In this document: positions 1 through 58,698 of the stretch, in pieces
Position numbering within the stretch: position 1 is the first letter of the stretch
How the letters are laid out: each line of letters starts with the position of its first letter
Origin: a virus
Lineage: Duplodnaviria; Heunggongvirae; Uroviricota; Caudoviricetes
Direction: 5' to 3' (one strand)
Length of the DNA stretch: 64,000 nt
IMG/VR virus record: IMGVR_UViG_3300037346_000580
Coordinates: 1 to 64,000 of that record
The notes under the pieces: model-generated
What the model was told of the DNA's origin: nothing
What the model saw: the letters and a program-made list of their open reading frames with translations, nothing else
Databases searched by the model: none
Position numbers and translations under genes: made by a program

Positions 1-3000
1 TTCCTGATGATCCACTAGTACCTGATGATCCACTGGTTCCTCTAGTTCCCGAAGTTCCTGATGATCCACTAGTACCTGATGATCCGCTAGTTCCTCTAGT
101 TCCCGAAGTTCCTGATGATCCACTAGTTCCTGAAGTACCTGATGATCCACTAGTTCCTGATGATCCACTAGTTCCTGATGATCCACTGGTTCCTCTAGTT
201 CCCGAAGTTCCTGATGATCCACTAGTACCTGATGATCCACTAGTACCTGATGATCCGCTAGTTCCTCTAGTTCCCGAAGTTCCTGATGATCCACTAGTTC
301 CTGAAGTACCTGATGATCCACTAGTTCCTGATGATCCACTAGTTCCTGATGATCCACTGGTTCCTCTAGTTCCCGAAGTTCCTGATGATCCACTAGTACC
401 TGATGATCCACTGGTTCCTCTAGTTCCCGAAGTTCCTGATGATCCACTAGTTCCTGAAGTTCCTGATGATCCACTAGTTCCTGAAGTACCTGATGATCCA
501 CTAGTTCCTGAAGTTCCTGATGATCCACTAGTTCCTGAAGTTCCTGATGATCCACTGGTACCTGATGATCCACTAGTTCCTGATGATCCACTGGTTCCTC
601 TAGTTCCCGAAGTTCCCGATGATCCACTAGTTCCTGAAGTTCCTGATGATCCACTAGTTCCTGAAGTACCTGATGATCCACTAGTTCCTGAAGTACCTGA
701 TGATCCACTAGTTCCCGAAGTACCTGATGATCCACTAGTTCCTGATGATCCACTAGTTCCTGATGATCCACTAGTTCCCGAAGTTCCTGATGATCCACTA
801 GTTCCCGAAGTACCTGATGATCCACTAGTTCCCGAAGTTCCACTAGTTCCTGATGATCCACTAGTTCCTGAAGTTCCTGATGATCCACTAGTTCCTGAAG
901 TTCCTGATGATCCACTAGTTCCTGATGATCCACTAGTTCCTGATGATCCACTGGTTCCTCTAGTTCCCGAAGTTCCTGATGATCCACTAGTTCCTGAAGT
1001 TCCTGATGATCCACTAGTTCCTGAAGTACCTGATGATCCACTAGTTCCTGAAGTTCCTGATGATCCACTAGTTCCTGAAGTTCCTGATGATCCACTGGTA
1101 CCTGATGATCCACTAGTTCCTGATGATCCACTGGTTCCTCTAGTTCCCGAAGTTCCTGATGATCCACTAGTTCCTGAAGTACCTGATGATCCACTAGTTC
1201 CTGAAGTACCTGATGATCCACTAGTTCCTGAAGTACCTGATGATCCACTAGTTCCCGAAGTACCTGATGATCCACTAGTTCCTGATGATCCACTAGTACC
1301 TGATGATCCACTAGTTCCCGAAGTTCCTGATGATCCACTAGTTCCAGAAGTACCTGATGATCCACTAGTTCCTGAAGTTCCTGATGATCCACTAGTTCCC
1401 GAAGTACCTGATGATCCACTAGTACCTGATGATCCACTGGTTCCTCTAGTTCCTGAAGTTCCTGATGATCCACTAGTTCCTGATGATCCACTAGTTCCTG
1501 ATGATCCACTGGTTCCTCTAGTTCCCGAAGTTCCTGATGATCCACTAGTTCCTGAAGTTCCTGATGATCCACTAGTACCTGATGATCCACTAGTTCCCGA
1601 AGTTCCTGATGATCCACTAGTTCCTGAAGTTCCTGATGATCCACTAGTTCCTGAAGTTCCTGATGATCCACTAGTTCCCGAAGTACCTGATGATCCGCTA
1701 GTTCCCGAAGTCCCTGATGATCCACTAGTTCCTGATGATCCACTAGTACCTGATGATCCGCTAGTTCCTCTAGTTCCCGAAGTTCCTGATGATCCACTAG
1801 TTCCTGAAGTACCTGATGATCCGCTAGTTCCTGATGATCCACTAGTTCCTGATGATCCACTAGTTCCTGATGATCCACTAGTTCCTGAAGTTCCTGATGA
1901 TCCACTAGTTCCTGATGATCCACTAGTACCCGAAGTACCTGATGATCCACTAGTTCCTGATGATCCACTAGTACCCGAAGTACCTGATGATCCACTAGTA
2001 CCTGATGATCCGCTAGTTCCCGAAGTTCCTGATGATCCACTAGTTCCTGAAGTTCCTGATGATCCACTAGTTCCTGAAGTTCCACTAGTACCTGATGATC
2101 CGCTAGTTCCCGAAGTTCCTGATGATCCACTAGTTCCTGAAGTTCCTGATGATCCACTAGTTCCTGATGATCCACTAGTACCTGATGATCCACTAGTTCC
2201 TGAAGTTCCTGATGATCCACTAGTTCCTGAAGTTCCTGATGATCCACTGGTACCTGATGATCCACTAGTTCCTGATGATCCACTGGTTCCTCTAGTTCCT
2301 GAAGTTCCTGATGATCCACTAGTTCCTGAAGTTCCTGATGATCCACTAGTTCCTGAAGTTCCTGATGATCCACTAGTTCCTGAAGTACCTGATGATCCAC
2401 TAGTTCCTGATGATCCGCTAGTTCCCGAAGTACCTGATGATCCACTAGTTCCCGAAGTACCTGATGATCCACTAGTTCCTGAAGTACCTGATGATCCACT
2501 AGTTCCTGATGATCCACTAGTACCTGATGATCCACTAGTTCCTGAAGTTCCTGATGATCCACTGGTTCCTCTAGTTCCCGAAGTTCCTGATGATCCACTA
2601 GTTCCTGAAGTTCCTGATGATCCACTAGTTCCTGATGATCCACTAGTTCCTGATGATCCACTAGTTCCTGATGATCCACTAGTTCCTGATGATCCACTAG
2701 TTCCTGATGATCCACTAGTTCCTGATGATCCACTAGTTCCTGAAGTACCTGATGAACCACTAGTTCCTGAAGTTCCTGATGAACCACTAGTTCCTGAAGT
2801 TCCTGATGAACCACTAGTTCCTGAAGTACCTGATGATCCACTAGTTCCTGATGATCCACTAGTTCCTGAAGTACCTGATGATCCACTAGTTCCTGATGAT
2901 CCACTAGTACCTGATGATCCGCTAGTTCCTCTAGTTCCTGAAGTACCTGATGATCCGCTAGTTCCTGATGATCCACTAGTTCCTGATGATCCGCTAGTTC

Positions 3001-3395
3001 CTGATGATCCACTAGTTCCCGAAGTCCCTGATGATCCACTAGTACCTGATGATCCACTGGTACCTGATGATCCACTGGTACCTGATGATCCACTAGTTCC
3101 TGATGATCCACTAGTTCCTGATGATCCACTAGTTCCTGATGATCCACTAGTACCCGAAGTACCTGATGATCCACTAGTACCTGATGATCCGCTAGTTCCC
3201 GAAGTTCCTGATGATCCACCAGTTCCTGAAGTTCCTGATGATCCACTAGTTCCCGAAGTACCTGATGATCCACTAGTTCCCGAAGTTCCACTAGTTCCCG
3301 AAGTTCCACTAGTACCTGATGATCCACTAGTTCCTGAAGTTCCACTAGTTCCTGATGATCCACTAGTTCCCGATGATCCGCTAGTTCCTGATGTA
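1..3395. repeat. Tandem array of 9/18/27-bp units (cctgatgatccactagtt / cctgaagtt variants), about 3.4 kb. Unit length is always a multiple of 9, so the reading frame is preserved throughout.
   Basis: Direct reading. More than 150 near-identical units. Variants fall mostly at codon third positions. There are no unique spacers, so this is not a CRISPR array. Confidence 0.95.
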
Positions 3396-3529
3396 CCGCC
3401 ACCTCCACTTAGATTCGCCAGTAGCCACTGATATCCACTCCAAATCCATAATTGCTGGATTCCGTTATCATTGGATAAAAATGCTTGACCTATTCGGGGA
3501 GATTGTGGATATTGAGCCAATTTGGAAAT
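1..3529 (-). CDS. Collagen-like repeat protein (Gly-X-Y: GTS GSS GTS GTR ...). Partial: the C-terminus lies beyond the window start. The N-terminal non-repeat region reads ...LAQYPQSPRIGQAFLSNDNGIQQLWIWSGYQWLLANLSGGGG. There is no in-frame ATG after the upstream TAA at 3530-3532, so a TTG start at 3518-3520 is possible. The plus-strand frame 0 is also open (PDDPLVPEV repeats) and ends at TGA 3429-3431.
   Basis: Manual translation of both strands. Glycine falls at every third codon for more than 1100 codons on the minus strand. Codon third positions coincide on the two strands, so the coding strand cannot be assigned with certainty. Confidence 0.45.
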   Translation of the reverse strand, partial: MSKLAQYPQSPRIGQAFLSNDNGIQQLWIWSGYQWLLANLSGGGGTSGTSGSSGTSGSSGTSGTSGTSGSSGTSGTSGTSGTSGTSGSSGTSGTSGSSGTSGTGGSSGTSGTSGSSGTSGSSGTSGTSGSSGTSGSSGTSGSSGTSGSSGTSGSSGTSGSSGTSGSSGTSGTSGSSGTSGSSGTSGSSGTSGSSGTSGTRGTSGSSGTSGSSGTSGSSGTSGTSGSSGTSGSSGTSGTSGSSGTSGTSGSSGTSGTSGSSGTSGTSGSSGTSGSSGTSGSSGTSGSSGTSGSSGTSGSSGTSGSSGTSGTSGSSGTSGTRGTSGSSGTSGTSGSSGTSGSSGTSGSSGTSGTSGSSGTSGTSGSSGTSGTSGSSGTSGSSGTSGTSGSSGTSGTSGSSGTSGTSGSSGTSGTRGTSGSSGTSGSSGTSGSSGTSGTSGSSGTSGTSGSSGTSGSSGTSGSSGTSGTSGSSGTSGTSGSSGTSGTSGTSGSSGTSGTSGSSGTSGTSGSSGTSGSSGTSGTSGSSGTSGSSGTSGTSGSSGTSGSSGTSGTSGSSGTSGSSGTSGSSGTSGSSGTSGTSGSSGTSGTRGTSGSSGTSGSSGTSGSSGTSGTSGSSGTSGTSGSSGTSGTSGSSGTSGTSGSSGTSGTSGSSGTSGSSGTSGTSGSSGTSGTRGTSGSSGTSGSSGTSGSSGTSGTRGTSGSSGTSGSSGTSGTSGSSGTSGTSGSSGTSGTSGSSGTSGTSGSSGTSGSSGTSGSSGTSGTSGSSGTSGTSGSSGTSGTSGSSGTSGTSGSSGTSGTRGTSGSSGTSGSSGTSGSSGTSGTSGSSGTSGTSGSSGTSGTSGSSGTSGTSGSSGTSGTRGTSGSSGTSGSSGTSGSSGTSGTSGSSGTSGTSGSSGTSGTSGTSGSSGTSGTSGSSGTSGTSGSSGTSGSSGTSGSSGTSGTSGSSGTSGTSGSSGTSGTSGSSGTSGTSGSSGTSGTRGTSGSSGTSGSSGTSGSSGTSGTSGSSGTSGTSGSSGTSGTSGSSGTSGTSGSSGTSGTRGTSGSSGTSGSSGTSGTRGTSGSSGTSGSSGTSGSSGTSGTSGSSGTSGTRGTSGSSGTSGSSGTSGSSGTSGTRGTSGSSGTSGSSGTSGSSGTSGTSGSSGTSGTRGTSGSSGTSGSSGTSGTRGTSGSSGTSGSSG

Positions 3530-3587
3530 TTAATTTAATCTATATATCGTCATCCGAGTAATTCCATTTAGTGTATAGTTATAAATT

Positions 3588-4760
3588 TTAATGACAATTA
3601 ATGTCATTGTTAATTTTCAACGCTTCTACGACCTCGTAACCTTGGTCTCTACGTTTGTTTTTGGTAAGGTCGTCTAAACTCCTACGACCTTCTTTTAATA
3701 TATTTTGACTTGCTAATTGGTCACGAGAATTTATTGCTCCGCAACTTGCGCAAACCCACTCTCTATCAGAAAGTTTTAACTCTTTATTTTTTACTCCACA
3801 TCCACAAGTTTTTGAAGAAGCATAATAACGGTTAACTTTATGTACTGTTTTACCGTACCAATCTGCTTTGTAAGTTAACATAGCTGTAAACTTTGACCAA
3901 CTTGCATCTGAAATACTCTTTGACATTAACTTACTCTCTAACATATCTTTAACTCCTAAATCCTCTATAAAAATAGTATCATAGTTGTTAATTAGTTGTG
4001 TTGAATAATTGTGTAAAAAGAAATCTCTTTGGTTTGTTGTCTTTTGATAAAGTTTTGCAATTTTTAATTTACATTTATCTCTACGTTTACTTCCTTTTTC
4101 TTTTCTTGCGAAGTGTTGTTGTAATCTTTTTAATTTAGCTTGGTTTTTGCTAAAGAATTTTGGATTACTAATCTCAATGCCATCGGATTGGGTTGAAAAA
4201 ACTTTTACACCTAAATCTAATGCACATTCTTTACCTGTTTTTAATTTATAATTAATTTCTTGTTCCACTAAAACTGAAGCAAAGTATTGACCACTTGAAT
4301 TAACTGAAACAGTTACAGACATAAACTTACCAGCTAAAGGTCTATCTAAAACTATTTTAATTTTGCCTATTTTCTCTAATCTTATTTTACCATCTTTTAT
4401 AGAGAATTTTTGGTTAGGTAGTCTAAAGGACTGTTTACTCTGTTTTTTCTTAAAGTTGGGTCTGCTTATAGTTGACTTTCTTGTTTTATTAAAGTATTGT
4501 TTTTTAAACTCTTTAAAATCTATTTCTTTTTGTTGTAAAATAGAAGCAGAAACTTCTTTTAACCAACTTACCTCTTCTTGGTTTCTGAATTGTGTAGAAG
4601 TGAGGTAAACAGGCTTTGGATTTTTTTCTACATCATAAGAATTAAAAACAGATGTCATATAGTTCCAAAAATATCGTGAACAACCAAAACTTTTACTTAG
4701 TAAAGTTTCTTGTTCTTGATTAGGATATATTCTGAATTTATATGATTTTAATTTATTCAC
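3588..4760 (-). CDS. tnpB: TnpB (OrfB_IS605/Fanzor-like RNA-guided nuclease family), 390 aa.
   Basis: N-terminus YKFRIYPNQEQETLL. RuvC-I ALDLGV, RuvC-II FIEDLG, zinc finger CGCG...CASCG, RuvC-III RDQLASQNI. All catalytic residues are present. Confidence 0.8.
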   Translation of the reverse strand: MNKLKSYKFRIYPNQEQETLLSKSFGCSRYFWNYMTSVFNSYDVEKNPKPVYLTSTQFRNQEEVSWLKEVSASILQQKEIDFKEFKKQYFNKTRKSTISRPNFKKKQSKQSFRLPNQKFSIKDGKIRLEKIGKIKIVLDRPLAGKFMSVTVSVNSSGQYFASVLVEQEINYKLKTGKECALDLGVKVFSTQSDGIEISNPKFFSKNQAKLKRLQQHFARKEKGSKRRDKCKLKIAKLYQKTTNQRDFFLHNYSTQLINNYDTIFIEDLGVKDMLESKLMSKSISDASWSKFTAMLTYKADWYGKTVHKVNRYYASSKTCGCGVKNKELKLSDREWVCASCGAINSRDQLASQNILKEGRRSLDDLTKNKRRDQGYEVVEALKINNDINCH

Positions 4761-11492: not shown

Positions 11493-11730
11493 AATTTGTT
11501 AATCTAAGTCATTTTCTTAATTTATTTTATTATTATACATTATTTTTTGTTTTTGTTTCATTTTTTATTGGTTATATTCTTCAGGCCTTATACCGTCAGG
11601 GAAAGATAACTTTGCATTTGTTAAATCAATGGAAGAATAAACGTCGGTAATCTCCTTCCTTGTTCTGCTGCTTATATTTAAGCAAACCTCATAAACCCAT
11701 TCATCGAACGCCATATTTAATTTATTTTAG

Positions 11731-11845
11731 TGGTCAGAACAGGATTCGAACCTGTATCTCCAATGTCTTACCAAAGGCGAGTCTACCCGATGCGTAAAGC
11801 AATTCCTCTACCTGACTTAGCTTCTAACAGATTATCAGTTCTGAC
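11731..11845 (-). tRNA. tRNA-like gene A (T-arm ACAGG-TTCGAAT-CCTGT, acceptor 3' strand TTCTGAC). The matching 5' acceptor GTCAGAA lies 115 nt upstream, too far for a canonical tRNA.
   Basis: Reverse complement contains GGTTCGAATCC and an acceptor-stem match. No clean cloverleaf could be built by eye. Confidence 0.4.
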
Positions 11846-29000: not shown

Positions 29001-30749
29001 TTATTGAATTTTTAAACGTTCTCTAATCTCAGTTAGACTCACCTGATTGTGGAATTTACCATCCTCGTAGATTAAAACCAATAATCCAGATTCTTCTTGT
29101 TCCTTGGTACATTCAGTATTTACTTCCAATTGATCTTTCCCGTCATACTTGATCTCATAAGGTAAAGCATCAGGTCTGTTATTAAAGACCTGACAGAAAC
29201 CTTTTAATGATTTTTTAGTACCGTTGTCTGTTATTGGATCTTTATAGATATTATATTCGGTTGTAATATAATCAGTTTGTCCATCAGGATCAACACCTGC
29301 AAATTCTTTAGTTGAAAACCAAGAACCCTTAGCCGCATATCCAGCAGAGTCCCGGGTTAGCATAACATATGTATAAGAGCCAACACCAACCACTATGTTC
29401 GTAGATGCAAATATTTTAGATGCTAATCTTGTATAGATAGCAATTTGTCTTTCCAAGTTGATTGAATCTCCATAGATTGCTCCAATGTGTGGATCTAATA
29501 CTTTAAATCCTTGTTCATTAATAGTACCACCAAAAATGTTCCAAAGTAATTCTATTACCCCTTTAAATTCAGATTCATTTATAATTTTATCACCAAATTT
29601 ATGAACATTATTTCCATAGATTTTATTATGTAAATCCTTAAAATCCTTTACCCTATCACTTAAGCTAGGGTTTGAATTAATGCCACAGATAATATCTACC
29701 GGGTCCCCTGAGTCGGGACGAATTACCAATTTCCCATCTCTTGCAAGAATTTCTTTCTTAAGTCTTGGCAGAATGTGTGTGATGACTTTCCATAAATCCA
29801 TTGTATCAGAAACCACTGAAAGTATTCCCTTAGGAAATTTTTTCAACCAATCACGAAGATTGAGTAACTCTGCAATTGCTAGATAGTCTGGGTTATCAAT
29901 GGATCCATCGGAAGGAGAATCAGATTCATAGTATTTTAGAATTTCATGGTTTAGTAAACCTGATTTTAATTTTTTCTCATAGAAGAAAATACCAGTACAA
30001 GTCACACTGTGTTCTGAAGCATTAACACTATAAACTGGAACATCATTTTCGTCAAAATCATAATAGTATCTTGATGCTGGGATAACATTTAGTGTGTCAC
30101 TACCTGAATTACTCATTGCGTGTCCTAATCCAACTGCGATTGAAGTAAATGGATTACCACCTCTGCTGTGGAAATCGTGACACATGAAATCAGCTAGCCA
30201 AAGATTTTCTGGATCTGTTTTAGTAACCCACTCAACAGCATTCTGTTTGAATCTATGTGCAATAGTAGCAGCTGTAGGTAATTGCCAAGCTAATTTAGAC
30301 ACCAGTGTTTCTAAATAAAGCCCAAGCCAAGCATAGCCATCAACTGTATTGATCCCTGTCATATGTGGGATATTTGGTTTTGTGAATGTTCCTTCAGGGA
30401 TGGCCTTGATTTTAACTGGAAGGTAACCAAGTTTATGTAGTTCGGAGAAGTGGCCAGCTTCATAATCCATCATAAGATACTTTGACATATCTCTACCGAA
30501 TCTTTCTGCCACCTCAACTGGTTGGTCAAAGAATAACTCCTGGAAGTTACTATGAATGTATCTCCATACCAACTGTTCTCCTGCTGACATAATGCCATCA
30601 ATTGATGGGTGCATATATTTTATGCTTCTGGGAATCCAGGTCCAATACTCAATCGATGTGTTTTCAGCCAACATTGCTTTGTGACCAACTTTGTAACCAT
30701 CCGATTCGTAGAGAGGGTTGATTTTAAACGTCTTGTTTAATTTTTCCAT
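29001..30749 (-). CDS. nadV: Nicotinamide phosphoribosyltransferase (NAMPT/NadV) family enzyme, 582 aa. Could alternatively be the ADPR-PP-utilising Namat variant.
   Basis: SDGYKVGH near the N-terminus (the DSYK(V)TH motif) and HSRGGNPFTSIAVGLGHAMSNSGSDT (the GSRG...GTDT motif of NAMPT). Confidence 0.75.
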   Translation of the reverse strand: MEKLNKTFKINPLYESDGYKVGHKAMLAENTSIEYWTWIPRSIKYMHPSIDGIMSAGEQLVWRYIHSNFQELFFDQPVEVAERFGRDMSKYLMMDYEAGHFSELHKLGYLPVKIKAIPEGTFTKPNIPHMTGINTVDGYAWLGLYLETLVSKLAWQLPTAATIAHRFKQNAVEWVTKTDPENLWLADFMCHDFHSRGGNPFTSIAVGLGHAMSNSGSDTLNVIPASRYYYDFDENDVPVYSVNASEHSVTCTGIFFYEKKLKSGLLNHEILKYYESDSPSDGSIDNPDYLAIAELLNLRDWLKKFPKGILSVVSDTMDLWKVITHILPRLKKEILARDGKLVIRPDSGDPVDIICGINSNPSLSDRVKDFKDLHNKIYGNNVHKFGDKIINESEFKGVIELLWNIFGGTINEQGFKVLDPHIGAIYGDSINLERQIAIYTRLASKIFASTNIVVGVGSYTYVMLTRDSAGYAAKGSWFSTKEFAGVDPDGQTDYITTEYNIYKDPITDNGTKKSLKGFCQVFNNRPDALPYEIKYDGKDQLEVNTECTKEQEESGLLVLIYEDGKFHNQVSLTEIRERLKIQ

Positions 30750-37273: not shown

Positions 37274-38179
37274 TTATATTACTTTAAATTGTTTAAGTTT
37301 ATGAAGCTCGTTATCATTTTTTAATGAAAATTCTGGATTGCTAATATCAACATAACTGTTTGTTGTGTAAATACAATCAAAATGGTCATTCAGTGGTTTT
37401 AACCCTGCTGAGAATATCCCATGTGTTACAACCAGAAATATTTTACCTGTTGCTCCCATTACTCTAGCTGCTTTAGCAATCTCAATAAAGGTTCTTCCGC
37501 CGTCACAAATATCATCCAGTATGAATAAGTCCTTATCTAGATCCTCTTTTTTTAAAGGCACCTCTGTGTGGGTAATTTTACCAGTTTTAACGTCACGATG
37601 TTTGGAGGCTATGATAACGTCGTTTTTGTATTCGATGCTCTCTGCAACATCATAAACCTTTTTGAGAGCTCCTGCATCGGGAGAAATTAAACGCATCTTT
37701 GAGTAATCGGATGACCCGTTATTGAAATAGTCTGTAAAGACAAATGTGATTAATCCTCCAGTATATTGGGTTAACTTTTTGAAGTTTCCGATACAAGCCT
37801 CAGACACGTCTGAGTGCGGATCAAGTATTGTTACCTTGGAAAATCCTTGTGAGTTAATAATAGGAGCAAGAACCTCCTTAATATAATTAACACTACCTGT
37901 TTCAAATTTCCTGTCAGATCTTGCACCTAATAAATAGCTTATCTCGAGTGATGTTTCTTTAACCCCAAGCTCCCTAAGAGCTTTATTTGCACAAACGATA
38001 AGTTCAAGATCCAGAAATGAATCTATTCTTGATTTTATTGACACTGACTCAATTTTCTCAAACATATCATATTTAAGAACTTCTCCCTCTAATATTGTGA
38101 TCGACTGCTGTCCATCAGGAAATTTGGAGACTTTAAATTTGATACTGTAGTTGCACGGTTCTGAAAGATTTAATATCAT
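37274..38179 (-). CDS. prs: Ribose-phosphate pyrophosphokinase (PRPP synthetase) family protein. Could be the ADPR-pyrophosphate synthetase (Adps) variant.
   Basis: FPDGQ, ILDPHSD, ISPDAGALK and the PRPP-binding motif ILDDICDGGRTF align with E. coli Prs FSDGE, VDLHAEQ, VSPDIGGV and LVDDMIDTGGTL. Confidence 0.75.
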   Translation of the reverse strand: MILNLSEPCNYSIKFKVSKFPDGQQSITILEGEVLKYDMFEKIESVSIKSRIDSFLDLELIVCANKALRELGVKETSLEISYLLGARSDRKFETGSVNYIKEVLAPIINSQGFSKVTILDPHSDVSEACIGNFKKLTQYTGGLITFVFTDYFNNGSSDYSKMRLISPDAGALKKVYDVAESIEYKNDVIIASKHRDVKTGKITHTEVPLKKEDLDKDLFILDDICDGGRTFIEIAKAARVMGATGKIFLVVTHGIFSAGLKPLNDHFDCIYTTNSYVDISNPEFSLKNDNELHKLKQFKVI

Positions 38180-49383: not shown

Positions 49384-49396
49384 TTTTTTAATTTGT

Positions 49397-49456
49397 AGGG
49401 ATAGAAGGAATCGAACCTCCGCTATAAAGCTCTACCACTAAGCTACATCCCGATAT
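49397..49456 (-). tRNA. tRNA-like element E (about 60 nt). Acceptor, canonical D-arm TA-GCTT-AGTGGTA-GAGC and T-arm GGAGG-TTCGATT-CCTTC are present, but only 8 nt sit where the anticodon arm should be. An anticodon-arm-less mini-tRNA.
   Basis: Manual reverse complement. The D-arm and T-arm are textbook; the anticodon stem-loop is missing. Confidence 0.4.
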
Positions 49457-50227: not shown

Positions 50228-50524
50228 TTATTGCGGTTCTGTTGATCCTATTCCTCCAATTAAATCTCCACCAGTCCAGACTGTGATTATTTGACCTTCT
50301 ATAAATCTTTCACGTGTTCTGTTACGCACCATTATGATCGTATCATCACCTTGTTTATTCCTTGTTTTTAAGCTCGCTGCTCCATCCCAGTTGCTTACCC
50401 TTATTACTCTACCTACATATTTATTTGGCTCCGTATGGAGCGCTATAATAAGCAATATTGATAATATAGGGACTCCGATAAAGACAAGTAATGGTAATAT
50501 AATGTCTTTTAATGCTTCTTTCAT
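50228..50524 (-). CDS. Membrane-anchored hypothetical protein (98 aa).
   Basis: ORF. TM helix. Confidence 0.4.
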   Translation of the reverse strand: MKEALKDIILPLLVFIGVPILSILLIIALHTEPNKYVGRVIRVSNWDGAASLKTRNKQGDDTIIMVRNRTRERFIEGQIITVWTGGDLIGGIGSTEPQ

Positions 50525-50976
50525 TACATGTTTCTTTTGGTGTCTCTGTCTATGTCTTTCTCCTTTATGCTTTGTCTTTTATCATATGTCTTCTTGCCTC
50601 TTGCCAGAGCTATATCCAACTTGATTAATCCTTTCTCGGTAGTAAAGATCCTGAATGGTACTATGGTCATTCCTCTGTCCATTTCATTCTGTAGTTTTCT
50701 AAGCTCGCTCCTATTCAGCAGTAATCTTCTCTCCCTGTTAGGTTCATGAGAATATATGGATGATATCGGGGTTATGTTTAGATTTTTCAGAAAAAGTTCC
50801 TTGCCATTGAAATAACAGTATGAATCTACGAAGGAAACCCTGCCGTCACGAATAGCCTTTACTTCAGATCCCAGTAATTGCATACCAGCAGTTAGAGTTC
50901 TGATGAACTCATAATCAAACTTTGCTTTTCTGTTGTTTATATTAACTTTATTTATCATTATTCCTCTTCTATCCAT
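50524..50976 (-). CDS. smpB: SsrA-binding protein SmpB (trans-translation factor).
   Basis: NRKAKFDYEFI ... AGMQLLGSEVKAIRDG ... DSY ... RRLLLNRSEL ... ARGKKTYDKRQSIKEKD aligns along the full length with bacterial SmpB (NRKARHEY ... GWEVKSLRAG ... DSY ... RKLLL ... KGKKQHDKR). Confidence 0.85.
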   Translation of the reverse strand: MDRRGIMINKVNINNRKAKFDYEFIRTLTAGMQLLGSEVKAIRDGRVSFVDSYCYFNGKELFLKNLNITPISSIYSHEPNRERRLLLNRSELRKLQNEMDRGMTIVPFRIFTTEKGLIKLDIALARGKKTYDKRQSIKEKDIDRDTKRNM

Positions 50977-52066: not shown

Positions 52067-52818
52067 GCTCTTAATCTTTCCATTAGTTTGTCTCTTTCCT
52101 TTATATAATCTCTAGTATCAAAATCTTCATCAAGCATTATTCTAAAATCCTCCCAAATATAATTAACACATCCGAAATCTTCTATTTTTTGGGTTTCCTT
52201 CAACTGCAAAGCAAAATGTAATATTCTCAGAGCGTGAAATATACCTTTCTTTGCACGATCCCTGAATCCATCCCTTGCCTGCATATCAGCAGTGTGCCAC
52301 GAAGCAGAAACTTTGGAGATGATCTTTTTTGTCATCACCTTATTGTCCCACTTTTGTACCTTGAAAGGCCAGGTACTTTTAATAACATCTCCTGGATTCA
52401 ATGACAGGCATTCTAGTGCACTGATATCATAGTTATTTATGGCATCAGTAAATCCACTTCGTGAATAAAGAATCCCCTGGATGTTTCGATTGTCGCTGGA
52501 TATTGCATTCTGTTTAAAAGCACCGCTCTTTAACATTGCTCCTTTGGTAACTATGATGTAATCATGATCTGAATTATGATCAGCAGTTCCATAGATTCGA
52601 CTACCATATCTGTATATGTTTAGCACTGGCTCGTCTATCTTCAGATCTCTGAGAATTTTATGGACTGCAGCTTCCGAATATCCATTCTTAATGTCATCTA
52701 TATAGGCTTGTCTTTCTTCAATATCCTCCTGGGTCAATTTCTCAGGTTCGTCCGAACCTAGAGAGTCAATAGGATTCCATGAATCCAGCATTTTTTGAAA
52801 ATCCGATTTACTATTCAT
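52063..52818 (-). CDS. Pol-beta-superfamily minimal nucleotidyltransferase (motif YGSRIYGTADHNSDHDYIIV), 251 aa.
   Basis: GS-x9-DxD NTase signature. Immediately downstream of the CCA-adding head-domain gene with a 1-nt overlap. Confidence 0.5.
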   Translation of the reverse strand: MNSKSDFQKMLDSWNPIDSLGSDEPEKLTQEDIEERQAYIDDIKNGYSEAAVHKILRDLKIDEPVLNIYRYGSRIYGTADHNSDHDYIIVTKGAMLKSGAFKQNAISSDNRNIQGILYSRSGFTDAINNYDISALECLSLNPGDVIKSTWPFKVQKWDNKVMTKKIISKVSASWHTADMQARDGFRDRAKKGIFHALRILHFALQLKETQKIEDFGCVNYIWEDFRIMLDEDFDTRDYIKERDKLMERLRA

Positions 52819-53555
52819 TATAATTCAAATGTTGGTTTTAGCCAAAGCCCATTTTTAATCAATACCTTTAATAACTTGCCATCCATGTGATCATCACAAT
52901 CTGTAAGCAGTCTCATGGATCTAAGAGTGTCATGCTTCATCATTTTTGATATCTCTTCCCTGATTCTTTCACCACTAACTGTTAGATCTAATTTTTCAAC
53001 AAGCTCGGGTTGCTTCATAGCTTCCCAGATATCGTCACACATAACAAGATCTTTTGTTATAATAAATCTCATGGCCCTTAATAATCTCAAGGGATCATCC
53101 ATAAATGTTATCATTGGATCCCTGGGTGTTCTTAGAACACCAACTCTAAGATCATCCACACCATCAAACAGGTCTATAAGATCTCCTTCCTCGTCTACAG
53201 CCATTGCATTAATAGTAAAGTCTCTTCTGATTAAATCATCCTCAAGAGTTCCAAGTTCTAATCTGGGTCTTCTCGTTCCTTCGATGTACCCAACTTCTTT
53301 TCTTGCCATAACAAAATCTGCTACGAGTTTCTCGTTTGGATCACCTTTAGGAAATCTTGCTCTGATTGTGTACATATCTGGCACTCTAAGAAAGATCTCA
53401 AATCCATTCTCGGTCATCCAAGCATCCATGCCCTGAAATCCCTCCTCCACTGTTTGGCTTAGATCATCTAGCACGAAAGTGAAGTCTATGTCCTTAGAAT
53501 CAATCCCAAGTATAGCATCACGAACGCAACCTCCGACCTTGTATAATTTTGGCAT
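52818..53555 (-). CDS. tRNA nucleotidyltransferase (CCA-adding enzyme / poly(A) polymerase head-domain family), 245 aa.
   Basis: LYKVGGCVRDAILGIDSKDIDF is the GGxVRDxxLG...DxD head motif. RRDFTINAMA matches the downstream RRDFTINA block of class II CCA enzymes. Confidence 0.7.
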   Translation of the reverse strand: MPKLYKVGGCVRDAILGIDSKDIDFTFVLDDLSQTVEEGFQGMDAWMTENGFEIFLRVPDMYTIRARFPKGDPNEKLVADFVMARKEVGYIEGTRRPRLELGTLEDDLIRRDFTINAMAVDEEGDLIDLFDGVDDLRVGVLRTPRDPMITFMDDPLRLLRAMRFIITKDLVMCDDIWEAMKQPELVEKLDLTVSGERIREEISKMMKHDTLRSMRLLTDCDDHMDGKLLKVLIKNGLWLKPTFEL

Positions 53556-55533: not shown

Positions 55534-56271
55534 TTAATTTCTGTGTATTACTTCTATATCCTCAACATCAGTATCCCCAATAGGTATTTTAAGTGACGCG
55601 GTGTAACTCATTGAATCTGAGGCATCACCACAGTTAGCATCCTCCCACGTGTAATACTGATTATTATCATTTCCTTCATAGGATATTTCAAAATTACCGT
55701 GTGCTATCTCATTTCCATTCCAAAATACAATTACTAATTTATCATCACTAGTTGTTTTTGACCAATATATGGAATCTATATCAGTATTAAATCTTAATAT
55801 CCCGAATGTTGGTGGCCACCATCCCTTTAACTCATCCGGAATAAAATAGAAACATATTGTTTTTCCTGAATTACATCTGATTAATATACCTCTACCATAT
55901 TCGCCATTTCTATACGATGGTCGTCTAAGATTAATCTTATCCATCAGGTCTAGAGCTTTTTTCTCCTTGTCAGAAACAATCGGACAATATGCTTCAGGTA
56001 AATATCCCTTATCTTTTAATAATTTAAAAAGTTCGTTATAAACCTCATTGTTTGGTTTATGTGTTATATCAGATAATTTGAGATAAGATCCGGTGAAATT
56101 TGTTTTATCCCTACTATATTTTGCATAATGTCCATATTTATCACACTCAACCTGGTCCATTATATTTGGATTTATACTTTCGAAGTATTCATCAACAGTT
56201 TTATACACTTCCGTCTCCGTTGGTGCGATTTTCACATGATCCTCAATAATTGAATATGTTTCGTTTTTCAT
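55534..56271 (-). CDS. Hypothetical protein (245 aa).
   Basis: ORF. Confidence 0.5.
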   Translation of the reverse strand: MKNETYSIIEDHVKIAPTETEVYKTVDEYFESINPNIMDQVECDKYGHYAKYSRDKTNFTGSYLKLSDITHKPNNEVYNELFKLLKDKGYLPEAYCPIVSDKEKKALDLMDKINLRRPSYRNGEYGRGILIRCNSGKTICFYFIPDELKGWWPPTFGILRFNTDIDSIYWSKTTSDDKLVIVFWNGNEIAHGNFEISYEGNDNNQYYTWEDANCGDASDSMSYTASLKIPIGDTDVEDIEVIHRN

Positions 56272-56303
56272 TTATGTACTTTTCTTTCACTATATATCTA
56301 AAC

Positions 56304-56335
56304 AAAAAAAAAGGACCAGTTGCTCTGGTCCTTTT
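56304..56335. terminator. Bidirectional terminator (A9-GGACCAG-TTGCT-CTGGTCC-T4).
   Basis: 7-bp GC-rich stem with an A-run and a T-run. Confidence 0.65.
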
Positions 56336-56352
56336 AGCATCAATATTTTTTA

Positions 56353-56889
56353 TTAGAATCTATAGTTCACACCAAAGCTAGGCGTATTAAATGGATTAGT
56401 AACTCCACTAAATCCAATTTTTGTTGTACTGTCACCATTCTTAACAGATTTATATGACGCTAAATCAGCTACAGATAAAGTTAAAGATAAGTTTTTAGTA
56501 ACAAAATAATTAGCACCCAATCCTAAATTAGCACTTAGAGTTTTCGTATCGCCTTCTTTATTACTATTTAATCCTAATTGAGAATGTACATTAAAATGCT
56601 CACCGATTCTTAAAAAGTAACATCTAGCGAATGCGCCGAAACCAAAAGAGTCTGTTGTTACACCAGCAGTTTTTGTGCTTTGTGTATTAAGAGAAACACC
56701 AAGAGCAAATTTGTCTGTCACAAAGTGACCAGCTGTTGGATTGAAATCGAATGTTTTTGTATCATCTGAGGATACGAATTTAACAGTACCTTCTACAAAA
56801 GTATCGCCTTTAGAAAATGTTTGAGCAAAGCTCGTTTGCATTGCGATTAAAGCAATTGCGACAAATAAAATTTTTTTCATTTTTTTCAA
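56353..56889 (-). CDS. Outer-membrane beta-barrel protein (OmpA/opacity-like porin family) with a Bacteroidetes-type signal peptide.
   Basis: MKKMKKILFVAIALIAMQTSFAQ signal peptide. Alternating amphipathic strands. C-terminal ...GVNYRF with terminal Phe. Confidence 0.6.
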   Translation of the reverse strand: MKKMKKILFVAIALIAMQTSFAQTFSKGDTFVEGTVKFVSSDDTKTFDFNPTAGHFVTDKFALGVSLNTQSTKTAGVTTDSFGFGAFARCYFLRIGEHFNVHSQLGLNSNKEGDTKTLSANLGLGANYFVTKNLSLTLSVADLASYKSVKNGDSTTKIGFSGVTNPFNTPSFGVNYRF

Positions 56890-56957
56890 ATTTTGATTTT
56901 CCTACTCTGTTAACGGTTTTCGGATTTCACCGTATGTTATATTATATGCTGAATTAA

Positions 56958-57164
56958 TCAGAAAGTTTCAGTATCGTCGAGAAATCTAACAGTCTTCCAA
57001 TCTATATTAGTAATATGCTCAAGCAATTTCTCCAATGCATTAACTCTGTTTCTAAGATCATCAACGGTACCTGTTAGTGAATTTATATCATCGGATTTAT
57101 AGGAGCTATAATGTTTTAGAGCCTCTATATCTTGGCTGATCGTCCCTATTTTATCCTGTGCCAT
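56958..57164 (-). CDS. Small coiled-coil protein (68 aa).
   Basis: ORF. Confidence 0.35.
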   Translation of the reverse strand: MAQDKIGTISQDIEALKHYSSYKSDDINSLTGTVDDLRNRVNALEKLLEHITNIDWKTVRFLDDTETF

Positions 57165-57565
57165 ACAAAATCATTGTTATCAAATAATATACTGTCTCTT
57201 TGCGGGTTGTGAGATATCACTGTCTCTGCTATTGGCGGGGCTGGTATCATTCTTCTTTCCCATCCGTAATTAACCTCCGTAAAATTTGGACGGTATACAG
57301 TATCAATCTCAACTGAATTCTCCTTTATTCTGTGATTACTACACCTCATTAAAATCTTTCCCGTAATCGGAAGAAGATATGAATTATCCATATGGATATC
57401 ATGGATATCAAATCCATCATCCCCTTTGAATCTGATCTGAGATATATCTCTGCTATCACATTTTTCACATTTATCACACATAAATAGTGCTTTCCTCCCA
57501 TACCAAACCATTAGATATGATTCCAAATATGATGGATCTGTCAATGCGTACATCACTCTTTTCAC
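57146..57565 (-). CDS. Cys-rich hypothetical protein (139 aa).
   Basis: ORF. CDKCEKCD motif. Confidence 0.45.
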   Translation of the reverse strand: MKRVMYALTDPSYLESYLMVWYGRKALFMCDKCEKCDSRDISQIRFKGDDGFDIHDIHMDNSYLLPITGKILMRCSNHRIKENSVEIDTVYRPNFTEVNYGWERRMIPAPPIAETVISHNPQRDSILFDNNDFVWHRIK

Positions 57566-58698
57566 TCTTTCTCCTTAAGTAAGAAATTATTGGATATAAC
57601 CTTGAAGCTTGTTTTTCTATCCAAACTTCTGATAACATATCCTTCTCTCTCCGCTGACTGGTTTAGTGTTGATTTTCCTTCCGCAAACTTTAGAATTTCA
57701 TCTATTGTTTCAGGAAGCTCAAAGTTCTCGTCAATAATAGGAACTGTATCTAAGCCAAGAGACTTTGCAATCAGATTAAAATGCTCAAAATCAAAATATT
57801 CCTGTGAATCTATATTAAAAGCATTATAAACCTTTAGAGCTTGTCCCTTTACTTTGTAAGGATTCCCCTGTATACCCTCTCCTATAATTTCCCCCTGAAT
57901 TGCAAAATTACCTCCCATATCAAGCATATTTACTTCGATGTCAAGATTTTTTGCAACCTTCCAGAAGGTGTTCTCCTTCTTGGCTCTTTCTACACCATCG
58001 TCACATATAATCATTCCTTCAACAAAATCCTCGGGACGACAAAGATCCAAATTTCTAGAGCATACCCCGAATTCTCCATTATACACATAAAATGTAGATG
58101 ATGTACCATCAAGTTTTTCAGTGACGTAGAATTTTTTATCTTTCATCTTGTCGTAATTCTTTGCAAGATTTTGAATTCTTTCCTCGTCAGTTTTAGGTAT
58201 AAAACTTGGAAAGTTACCCTTAGCAACTCCTGCTAGTTCTGCTGGAATTGGTGGATCCCATTTGATGATACCAAGGAGATGTGTTACGTCTGCTCCTTCT
58301 TCTATAACTAAAGCACCATCATAAGGGCCCAATTGATAAATGGGTCCATCCGGTGTTTGTAGGTGACCAAGTTTCTGATCCTCATACTCACCTTCCAGTA
58401 TGGAAAGAGGTAAAATAAGTCCCTGTGAAACCTGACCTCTAAGTTTAATTGTTCTCAAACGGAATCCCTCCTGATCTAACATCTTTCTATATGAGCTTTT
58501 TCTAAGGAATTCGAATTCTTCCCTGATTGGCAAGAATGAATCGACCTCACAGTAGATAACGAAATCTCCAGTTTTAAATCCATTGTCTTTCCCAGTAACT
58601 AGTTTCCATCCATCAACAACTGCCATTTCTATAAGATCCGCTCCCTCTATCGGTTGGATATCTGAGATCTTTCGGATACTCGCAAGTTTTCTTTCCAT
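57562..58698 (-). CDS. ATP-dependent RNA ligase (RNA_ligase/Rnl family, DRB0094-like).
   Basis: N-terminal RKLASIRKISDIQPIEGADLIEMAVVDGWKLV OB-like segment. Nucleotidyltransferase motif I YVTEKLDGTS (KxDG). Confidence 0.7.
   Translation of the reverse strand: MERKLASIRKISDIQPIEGADLIEMAVVDGWKLVTGKDNGFKTGDFVIYCEVDSFLPIREEFEFLRKSSYRKMLDQEGFRLRTIKLRGQVSQGLILPLSILEGEYEDQKLGHLQTPDGPIYQLGPYDGALVIEEGADVTHLLGIIKWDPPIPAELAGVAKGNFPSFIPKTDEERIQNLAKNYDKMKDKKFYVTEKLDGTSSTFYVYNGEFGVCSRNLDLCRPEDFVEGMIICDDGVERAKKENTFWKVAKNLDIEVNMLDMGGNFAIQGEIIGEGIQGNPYKVKGQALKVYNAFNIDSQEYFDFEHFNLIAKSLGLDTVPIIDENFELPETIDEILKFAEGKSTLNQSAEREGYVIRSLDRKTSFKVISNNFLLKEKE

Follow-up and report, generated by a model that had tools for sequence, protein, structure and literature searches.

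We analysed a gene on the minus strand of a 64,000-nucleotide (nt) stretch of Caudoviricetes DNA, positions 1 to 64,000 of IMG/VR record IMGVR_UViG_3300037346_000580, which is referred to in the following as the window. Its product can be identified with high confidence as a small, 8-stranded outer-membrane beta-barrel protein (OMP) of the PF13505 family, carried by a huge phage of a Bacteroidota host. The OMP gene is a self-contained cassette made up of a TATAAT-like box, a DUF805b leader RNA, the coding sequence and a strong terminator (Table 1).

The open reading frame (ORF) list places the gene at 56353..56889 and counts 178 amino acids (aa) from a TTG start at 56889. Because the aligned homologs all begin with MKK[ILF]L (44 of 44), we consider the ATG at 56880 the probable start, which gives 175 aa; the TTG is an alternative that adds three residues. 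An earlier note on this DNA had read the N-terminus as MKKMKKILF..., a form that depends on the TTG extension, while the signal-peptide-like character it described is present. The frame itself exists and is no chance one, as the Pfam match, the homologs, the ratio of nonsynonymous to synonymous substitution rates (dN/dS) and the barrel model all indicate. Searches with the protein returned 47 homologs with E values down to 4e-99, and an exhaustive profile search collected 4705 family representatives, 26 of them with E<1e-30. In one relative (L023/L284, IMGVR_UViG_3300034116_002156; loci are designated by L and a number), the A-run directly after the OMP start codon has six instead of seven A's, which frameshifts the signal peptide, and the ORF restarts at Met14. 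The missing A may reflect an error in the assembly or slippage at the homopolymer (phase variation).

Barrel fold, export signals and expression cassette

Pfam family PF13505 (OMP_b-brl) matches the protein end to end, aligning residues 8-178 (178-aa numbering) with positions 2-175 of the 175-position profile; its score of 29.2 bits just exceeds the gathering score of 28.7, and precomputed matches to the same family are carried by many of the homologs. An AlphaFold2 model built with 45 homologs (predicted local distance difference test score, pLDDT, 81.9; predicted template-modelling score, pTM, 0.70) contains eight long antiparallel strands, the eighth of which is broken by loop 4, and an N-terminal helix of low pLDDT that is detached from the barrel. 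When the model was compared with the PDB by Foldseek, the top matches were exclusively 8-stranded OMPs, namely OmpW, OprF-N, OmpA-TM, OmpX, OprG, NspA and Ail (E 2e-5 to 2e-3, template-modelling (TM) score ~0.5). A profile search of PDB sequences gave nothing at E<=1, so the protein has no solved relative by sequence. NCBIfam gave sub-threshold matches only, PHROGs offered no meaningful family, and a Pfam scan at E<=1 returned PF13505 alone.

Together, the family match, the model and the structural matches bear out the signal-peptide-bearing outer-membrane beta-barrel proposed in the earlier note. Its two suggested subtypes fared worse. With a mature protein of 155 aa and eight strands, a general porin (trimeric, 16-18 strands, at least 16, and ~300 aa or longer) is rejected. 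Likewise, the protein is not OmpA-like in the full sense, since nothing follows the barrel, whose last residue is 175, and the Pfam scan found no C-terminal OmpA_C peptidoglycan-binding domain. Membership of the Ail/Lom family was also rejected, as PF06316 is unmatched.

The N-terminus follows the n/h/c layout of a signal peptide (MKK / ILFVAIALIAM / QTSFA, then Gln), and the assignment rests on these sequence features, on the detached model helix and on the invariance of A19 and Q20 in 45 aligned sequences. More broadly, the cleavage site reads AQ, GQ or SQ in 120 of 120 family members examined, with Gln in 37/37 sequences of the viral clade and 83/83 others. A Gln directly after the signal-peptidase site (the Q-rule) is specific to Bacteroidetes (PMC5837995) and has already been applied to Porphyromonas phages to pick out their exported proteins (PMC10367356). 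At the C-terminus, G170 and Y173 are invariant and a terminal Y[RK]F is found in 31 of the 37 viral-clade sequences. Both termini had been taken as Bacteroidetes hallmarks; the +1 Gln is indeed phylum-specific, whereas the terminal aromatic residue of ...NYRF belongs to the general Gram-negative beta-signal. From these signals, we infer export via Sec, signal peptidase I and the beta-barrel assembly machinery (BAM).

The TATAAT-like box, a putative -10 element that would place the leader hairpin at the 5' end of the mRNA, is kept upstream of the OMP gene in related loci L001, L004, L023, L025, L006, L041 and L285. The hairpin comprises 4-5 bp (ACGGU...ACCGU) with the loop GAAAUCCGAAA, followed by AGAGUAGG. 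The upstream regions of clade members with >=50% identity have in common the TATAAT-like box, the small hairpin and a AGAGTAGG box, and for six orthologous leaders the best-scoring family at this position is again DUF805b, with 23-34 bits (below the gathering score). Compensatory changes are seen in the stems of these OMP-linked leaders (ACGG/CCGT, ACAG/CTGT, GCGG/CCGC). Downstream, a hairpin and T-run lie at the same place in about 18 of 20 viral orthologs, with differing stem sequences. The window contains a single copy of the leader motif, as does each related locus, and every one of these copies precedes the OMP gene; on these grounds a general phage promoter was rejected as its identity. 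A test of the cassette as a 'moron' found no relative that lacks the OMP gene at this position: it is present in every collinear relative. Its terminator is strong and conserved, and the conserved TATAAT-like box is its only candidate promoter.

In family terms, the leader retains the full 35-nt model of RF02914 (clan CL00115), a candidate cis-regulator, with its hairpin, GGAAgCCGAAA loop and AGAGUAGG tail. RF02914 is, however, named for the DUF805 membrane-protein genes that it precedes, while the gene downstream in the window is that of a phage OMP. The main text of Weinberg et al. 2017 (PMC5737381), the source of the motif, contains no discussion of DUF805b.

To place the leader in a wider context, metagenomes were scanned with loop and tail fixed and the stem left free. 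This gave 121 sites with more than 30 distinct stems, 66 with 4/4 stem pairs and 49 with 3/4, where 4/4 pairing is expected by chance in ~2%. The distance from AGAGTAGG to the ATG is most often 21-25 nt, and no Bacteroidetes -7 box (TAnnTTTG) was found at a fixed distance upstream of the hairpin; this preferred ATG distance and the absence of such a box indicate that the element is anchored to the start codon. In IMG/VR, pattern matches filtered by hairpin architecture include phage contigs with up to three leaders per locus among the matches listed. More specifically, leaders lie 19-24 nt before an ATG in L143 (564, 2324, 5423), L051 (7151, 7565) and at least ~40 other loci, and those among the matches listed precede ParB-like and unknown non-structural genes. 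The genes downstream are very diverse in these scans, comprising unrelated phage and metagenomic genes. Of the proteins encoded after the leader, 45% look exported, compared with 18% of the remaining ORFs of these loci (odds ratio 3.6, p ~5e-7), as scored by a crude heuristic with raw ORFs as background. The leader RNA may act on translation initiation or mRNA stability. In five metagenome loci (L168, L198, L205, L226, L260), the genes after the leader encode short peptides with double-glycine leaders that look bacteriocin-like.

Table 1. Features of the OMP cassette and further features of the window.
Feature	Position	Strand	Evidence or remarks
OMP coding sequence	56353..56880	minus	175 codons plus TAA stop at 56353-56355; ORF list, homolog N-termini, PF13505, AlphaFold2, Foldseek
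Signal peptide, residues 1-19: MKKILFVAIALIAMQTSFA	56824..56880	minus	Predicted signal peptidase I site between SFA and Q, Gln at +1 (Q-rule)
Mature 8-stranded barrel, residues 20-175	56356..56823	minus	DSSP on model, conservation by region, loop lengths
C-terminal beta-signal ...TPSFGVNYRF	56356..56385	minus	Alternating hydrophobic residues, terminal Phe
TATAAT-like box	56941..56946	minus	7 nt upstream of leader; putative -10 element, consensus level
5' leader, Rfam RF02914 DUF805b RNA	56899..56933	minus	cmscan 36.5 bits vs gathering score 35.6, full model
A-rich spacer between AGAGUAGG and AUG	56881..56898	minus	Sequence
Intrinsic terminator	56299..56335	minus	11-bp GC-rich stem (AAAAGGACCAG...CTGGTCCTTTT) plus T-run, 17 nt past stop codon; terminator scan
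SmpB	50524-50976	minus	Synteny with annotated relatives
PolyA_pol/CCA-adding enzyme	52818-53555	minus	Synteny with annotated relatives
RNA ligase	57562-58698	minus	Synteny with annotated relatives
NAMPT	29001-30749	minus	E 1e-136; within ~9 kb of ribose-phosphate pyrophosphokinase
Ribose-phosphate pyrophosphokinase	37274-38179	minus	Within ~9 kb of NAMPT
Collagen-like fibre ORF	1-3530	minus	1,176 codons, runs off window start; Gly-X-Y repeats (GTSGSSGTSGTR...)
390-aa ORF	3588-4760	minus	phrog_506 'transposase', E 6e-104; adjoins fibre-like gene
88-nt tRNA-Asp, anticodon 'atc'	11730-11817	minus	ARAGORN; Rfam 28.9 vs threshold 29
Short 57-nt tRNA	49396-49452	minus	Rfam calls, ARAGORN misses

A viral clade of loop-trimmed, exchangeable barrels

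The two closest homologs of the OMP (93% and 89% identity) lie on contigs that are collinear with the window gene for gene. The collinear IMG/VR viral contigs measure 430-434.7 kb, two of them 434.5 and 434.7 kb, and share the order RNA ligase, two small ORFs, OMP, further genes, and then PolyA_pol (CCA-adding), PTH2 and SmpB. In total, IMG/VR classes 19 OMP-carrying loci as viral, on contigs of up to 434 kb. At 46-67% identity, homologs are found on contigs of 230-386 kb with holin, GH19 and M15 endolysins, GP88 and tRNA arrays. The collinearity, the lysis and GP88 genes of the relatives, the collagen-like ORF at the window start, of a kind typical of phage fibres, and a window protein resembling those of jumbo phages agree that the gene is phage-borne, as the earlier note had assumed. 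Among 50,697 deposited phage genomes, neither megablast with 12 kb around the gene nor tblastn with the protein gave a match.

Bacterial homologs were sought in a scan of one genome per species, which relied on motif patterns that closer homologs could have escaped; it returned Bacteroidota only, at 26-35% identity to the window OMP. The genomes are those of six Flavobacterium, Capnocytophaga, Paenimyroides, Spirosoma and two metagenome-assembled genomes (MAGs), one of an unclassified Bacteroidetes and one of Flavobacteriales. In Flavobacterium, the homologs occupy a conserved core locus consisting of aroQ, an array of 2-5 small OMP paralogs, xerD and rny. The chromosomal proteins of Flavobacterium and other Flavobacteriaceae have much in common with the phage OMP, namely the PF13505 family, the 8-strand barrel, the Ala-Gln cleavage site, an N-terminal FxKGD motif, R-[YC]-Y-F and G-x-N-Y-F strands and a Y-[KR]-F terminus. 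In addition to their low identity, they differ in being ~25 aa longer and in standing in multi-paralog arrays, and the bacterial homolog loci examined showed no DUF805b leader at gathering score. Within the Flavobacterium arrays of L012-L020, the paralogs are near-identical in signal peptide and divergent in barrel (MKKIILTVAAVFAFGFANAQ occurs twice in L020), a pattern that mirrors the phage cassette.

In a neighbour-joining tree, all 21 copies of viral context fall into one clade and all 11 of bacterial context outside it, a split with a bootstrap of 96/100. At the boundary, representative P0059 (E 3e-52) is of phage context and P0074 (E 6e-35) of bacterial context. Recent capture of a host gene was rejected, given the age of the phage clade and its identity of at most 35% to any bacterial copy found. 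A 1-kb contig assigned to 'archaeon ADurb.Bin336' (L011, MWBC01000129.1) carries a phage-clade OMP of 44% identity; because the tree groups it with viral locus L035, the contig probably represents a piece of phage DNA that was wrongly binned with an archaeal MAG.

The host can be read from the same evidence. The OMP, which the earlier note had called the strongest host clue in the window, is a good one: Gln follows the cleavage site in every homolog and the bacterial relatives are all Bacteroidota, mostly Flavobacterium. Best matches outside Bacteroidetes, which the note had named as a refutation, did not appear among the bacterial relatives found. The guanine-plus-cytosine (GC) content of the window is ~34%. 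For a 404-aa window protein, the best matches among cultured phages are to the Tenacibaculum jumbo phages PTm1, PTm5 and pT24; huge uncultured phages and Prevotella Lak phages come next. Since the Q-rule, the Bacteroidota-only family, the GC content and the Tenacibaculum match agree, a Bacteroidota host is well supported, and both the class Flavobacteriia and the genus Flavobacterium are likely on these sequence grounds. The DUF805b leader is also of a type that we take to be characteristic of Bacteroidota, from the taxonomic range of its Rfam family.

The viral and non-viral copies differ in length (median 178 against 204 aa), and this difference lies wholly in the four extracellular loops, whose medians are 15/13/19/27 in the viral copies and 19/22/24/32 in the others; the three periplasmic turns have the same lengths in both. 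Conservation peaks at the periplasm-proximal base of the barrel and at both termini, and reaches its minimum at the extracellular hairpin tips, to which indels are confined. Loop 4 is an exception to the variable tips, with a GFxGVxNP motif specific to the phage clade. Against six orthologs, dN/dS is 0.09-0.19, indicating purifying selection. Furthermore, the OMP is 93% identical to that of the nearest relative, the highest value among 21 neighbouring genes (range 40-92%), with the immediate neighbours at 74% and 40%.

Using a conserved neighbouring gene as the query, we retrieved contigs such as L285, whose flanking genes are 57-90% identical to those of the window and whose syntenic OMP has 164 aa. 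The frame around this OMP is as in the window, with a TATAAT-like box, leader, signal peptide MKKILFIAIALIAIQTSFAQ, C-terminal GLNYRF and terminator. The two proteins as a whole, including the common signal peptide, share only 38% identity. Between two otherwise near-identical relatives, nucleotide identity is 0.88-1.00 until ~40 nt past the ATG, drops to 0.30-0.60 over the mature region and returns to 0.82-1.00 past the stop codon. Beyond its own cluster, the alternative barrel is best matched by bacterial-type members (e.g. F. endophyticum, 34-38%) and not by the phage clade. At least five independent samples contain the allele with the same phage gene order around it, on which basis an assembly chimera was rejected as its origin, and some of its records share the study prefix KRAE22-1 with a 434-kb main-allele contig.

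The loops of the alternative allele measure 12/13/14/20, compared with medians of 18/22.5/23/29 in its 24 nearest bacterial-type relatives, and its turns are unchanged. As both the main and the alternative allele are loop-shortened, two independent phage-borne barrels have been loop-minimised. The barrel body appears to be exchangeable by recombination, whereas leader, signal peptide, beta-signal and terminator stay fixed around it, an arrangement that would fit a surface-interaction function under diversifying selection.

Proposed function and alternative explanations

Our leading interpretation, held tentatively and with the identity of the protein included in that judgement, is that the OMP remodels the host surface and thereby lowers phage adsorption, through superinfection exclusion or receptor blanking. 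It is suggested by the loop minimisation in two lineages, by the confinement of variability to the tips and by the co-circulation of exchangeable barrels. The pre-protein would cross the inner membrane by the host Sec system and be cut by host signal peptidase I between SFA and Q, after which the Gln exposed at the N-terminus would probably cyclise, as it does in host proteins. Insertion of the barrel by BAM, with the C-terminal Y-R-F as its signal, would follow. In this way, the phage may fill the outer membrane of the infected cell with a minimal-loop barrel that masks or displaces a receptor, and so alter the surface offered to phages. The most likely effects would be to block further adsorption (superinfection exclusion) and to lower the number of progeny lost to infected cells and debris. 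Exclusion or receptor masking, as raised in the earlier note, is thus plausible in that loop trimming and barrel swapping are compatible with either.

Several points weigh against surface remodelling. The PF13505 match on which the family assignment draws has a small margin, and many tips of the tree are representatives unlabelled as to origin. PADLOC gave no match for the OMP. The outer-membrane exclusion proteins T5 Llp, phi80 Cor and TraT are lipoproteins, not barrels. Loop shortening could also be a mere loss of host-specific loop functions, and the strong conservation within an allele is atypical of arms-race proteins and would suit a structural or housekeeping role equally.

Such a housekeeping role, in which a phage copy of a core small OMP of the host keeps the outer membrane intact through a prolonged infection once host gene expression has been shut off, in analogy to cyanophage psbA, is unlikely, though the foremost of the rival readings. 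The bacterial homologs are core chromosomal genes at the conserved aroQ-OMP array-xerD-rny locus, phage and bacterial copies share a conserved barrel core and conserved periplasmic turns, purifying selection is strong, and the window is rich in host-maintenance genes (NAMPT, ribose-phosphate pyrophosphokinase (PRPP synthase), SmpB, CCA-adding enzyme, RNA ligase). The barrel allele would then track the host strain. However, replacement genes such as psbA remain near the host versions, and the phage clade stays at or below 35% identity to every bacterial copy found. Moreover, in each of two independent alleles, systematic trimming has affected all four loops at the surface, and a phage-specific motif is found in the last of them.

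Structural similarity raises the question of a small-molecule channel like OmpW, OprG or AlkL, through which a hydrophobic or small solute would feed phage metabolism. OmpW is the top structural match, OprG matches too, and the phage has metabolic genes for nicotinamide adenine dinucleotide (NAD) salvage. Nevertheless, the structural scores of OmpW, OmpA, OmpX and OprF-N are indistinguishable at TM ~0.5, and the OmpW family hidden Markov model of NCBIfam (NF008202) reaches 12.8 bits against a cut-off of 287. The conserved polar and charged strand residues E30, R86, Q101 and N124 suggest a filled, OmpA- or OmpX-like lumen, and the short loops remove the lateral-gate architecture typical of OmpW. 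We therefore regard a channel as improbable.

A lysis accessory that weakens or disrupts the outer membrane late in infection, standing in for spanins, appears very improbable. Spanins are seldom recognisable in Bacteroidota phages, and two more distant relatives have lysis genes (holin, GH19, M15 peptidases, glucosaminidase) at a distance of 5-8 kb from the OMP gene. In the window and its close relatives, by contrast, it sits among RNA-repair and translation genes with its own promoter-like box and terminator, and its leader elsewhere precedes non-structural, early-type genes such as the ParB-like ones. We know of no precedent for a beta-barrel spanin. Finally, the idea that the OMP gene is bacterial and its contig chimeric or mis-binned, or that it is a decaying host passenger, is effectively refuted: the family is overwhelmingly bacterial and unmatched among deposited phage genomes, but the same synteny recurs in many independent assemblies and samples, IMG/VR classes its loci as viral, the viral copies form a single clade, and the gene, under the purifying selection described above, is the most conserved of its neighbourhood.

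Surface remodelling can be joined with the leader data into a broader proposal, which is speculative and unlikely to hold in all its parts. Huge phages of Flavobacteriia would keep a modular 'barrel-swap' cassette, a fixed frame of DUF805b leader, signal peptide, beta-signal and terminator into which host-derived, loop-minimised barrels are recombined. Alleles that co-circulate in one environment would serve surface blanking or exclusion under frequency-dependent selection. Instead of regulating DUF805 genes specifically, the DUF805b RNA would be a general, start-codon-anchored element that favours the expression of exported proteins in Bacteroidota and has been widely co-opted by phages. Bacteroidota largely lack Shine-Dalgarno sequences.

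Phage-encoded small outer-membrane barrels are already known, the best-known being Lom of phage lambda. Lom (Ail/Lom, PF06316) is likewise an 8-stranded barrel with a Sec signal. It is encoded by an autonomous 'moron'-style unit, which the OMP cassette may resemble, and the structure of Ail is among the Foldseek matches of the window OMP. Lom differs in belonging to temperate enterobacterial prophages and in its link to adhesion, while the window OMP is carried by a huge phage and is unmatched by PF06316. A true homolog is UniProt A0A6J5M8N4 of an uncultured Caudovirales phage ('Outer membrane protein beta-barrel'; 178 aa, 43% identity, TM 0.81 in BFVD). The barrels of Tenacibaculum phage Gundel_1, Vibrio phage nt-1, Synechococcus phage S-CBWM1 and Ralstonia phage phiRSL1 are alike in fold and phage-borne, but at 11-18% identity they belong to other sequence families. 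None of these barrels, the lytic-phage examples to our knowledge included, has an assigned function. T5 Llp, phi80/N15 Cor and plasmid TraT match the proposed mode, in which an envelope protein blocks a surface receptor, but they are unrelated to the window barrel in sequence and fold. What appears to be new here is the clade-wide cassette with a DUF805b leader, the convergent trimming of loops and the barrel swap with sharp boundaries.

The OMP allows the host (Bacteroidota, probably Flavobacteriia) of an uncultured phage lineage of ~430 kb to be called firmly from the sequence itself. It also indicates that huge phages invest strongly selected genes in the host envelope, beyond translation and metabolism, and the trimming of loops in two alleles together with barrel exchange in a fixed frame suggests action at the cell surface. 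For DUF805b, an orphan Rfam motif, a broader role is suggested. Isolated Flavobacterium jumbophages of ~390 kb, which a 2026 preprint (10.64898/2026.04.22.720137) reports to contain NAMPT 'NAD-salvage islands', would offer an experimental route if they carry a homolog.

Gene neighbourhood of the window

Within the window, the OMP gene is surrounded by a block of translation and tRNA-repair genes. The genes flanking it directly, at 55534-56271 and 56958-57164 on the minus strand, are hypervariable among close relatives: the downstream flank is 74%, 40% and 37% identical, and the upstream flank is 40% or 41% identical or absent. No family match was found for either. No temperate-lifestyle genes were noticed in the window, although no systematic search for them was made.

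At the start of the window, the collagen-like ORF has a non-repetitive C-terminal part after its repeats and is probably a tail fibre. The GC content of the first 4 kb (43-47%) exceeds the value found elsewhere due to this ORF. The adjoining 390-aa ORF is read as IS605/TnpB-type, and relative L006 also has an OrfB_IS605/Cas12f-like gene. Further RNA genes are found in relatives: a transfer-messenger RNA (tmRNA) is encoded at viral locus L026, which also carries the OMP and is more distant, and in a 231-kb relative (L009, 8579-12899) an array of ~20 tRNAs begins directly downstream of the OMP gene.

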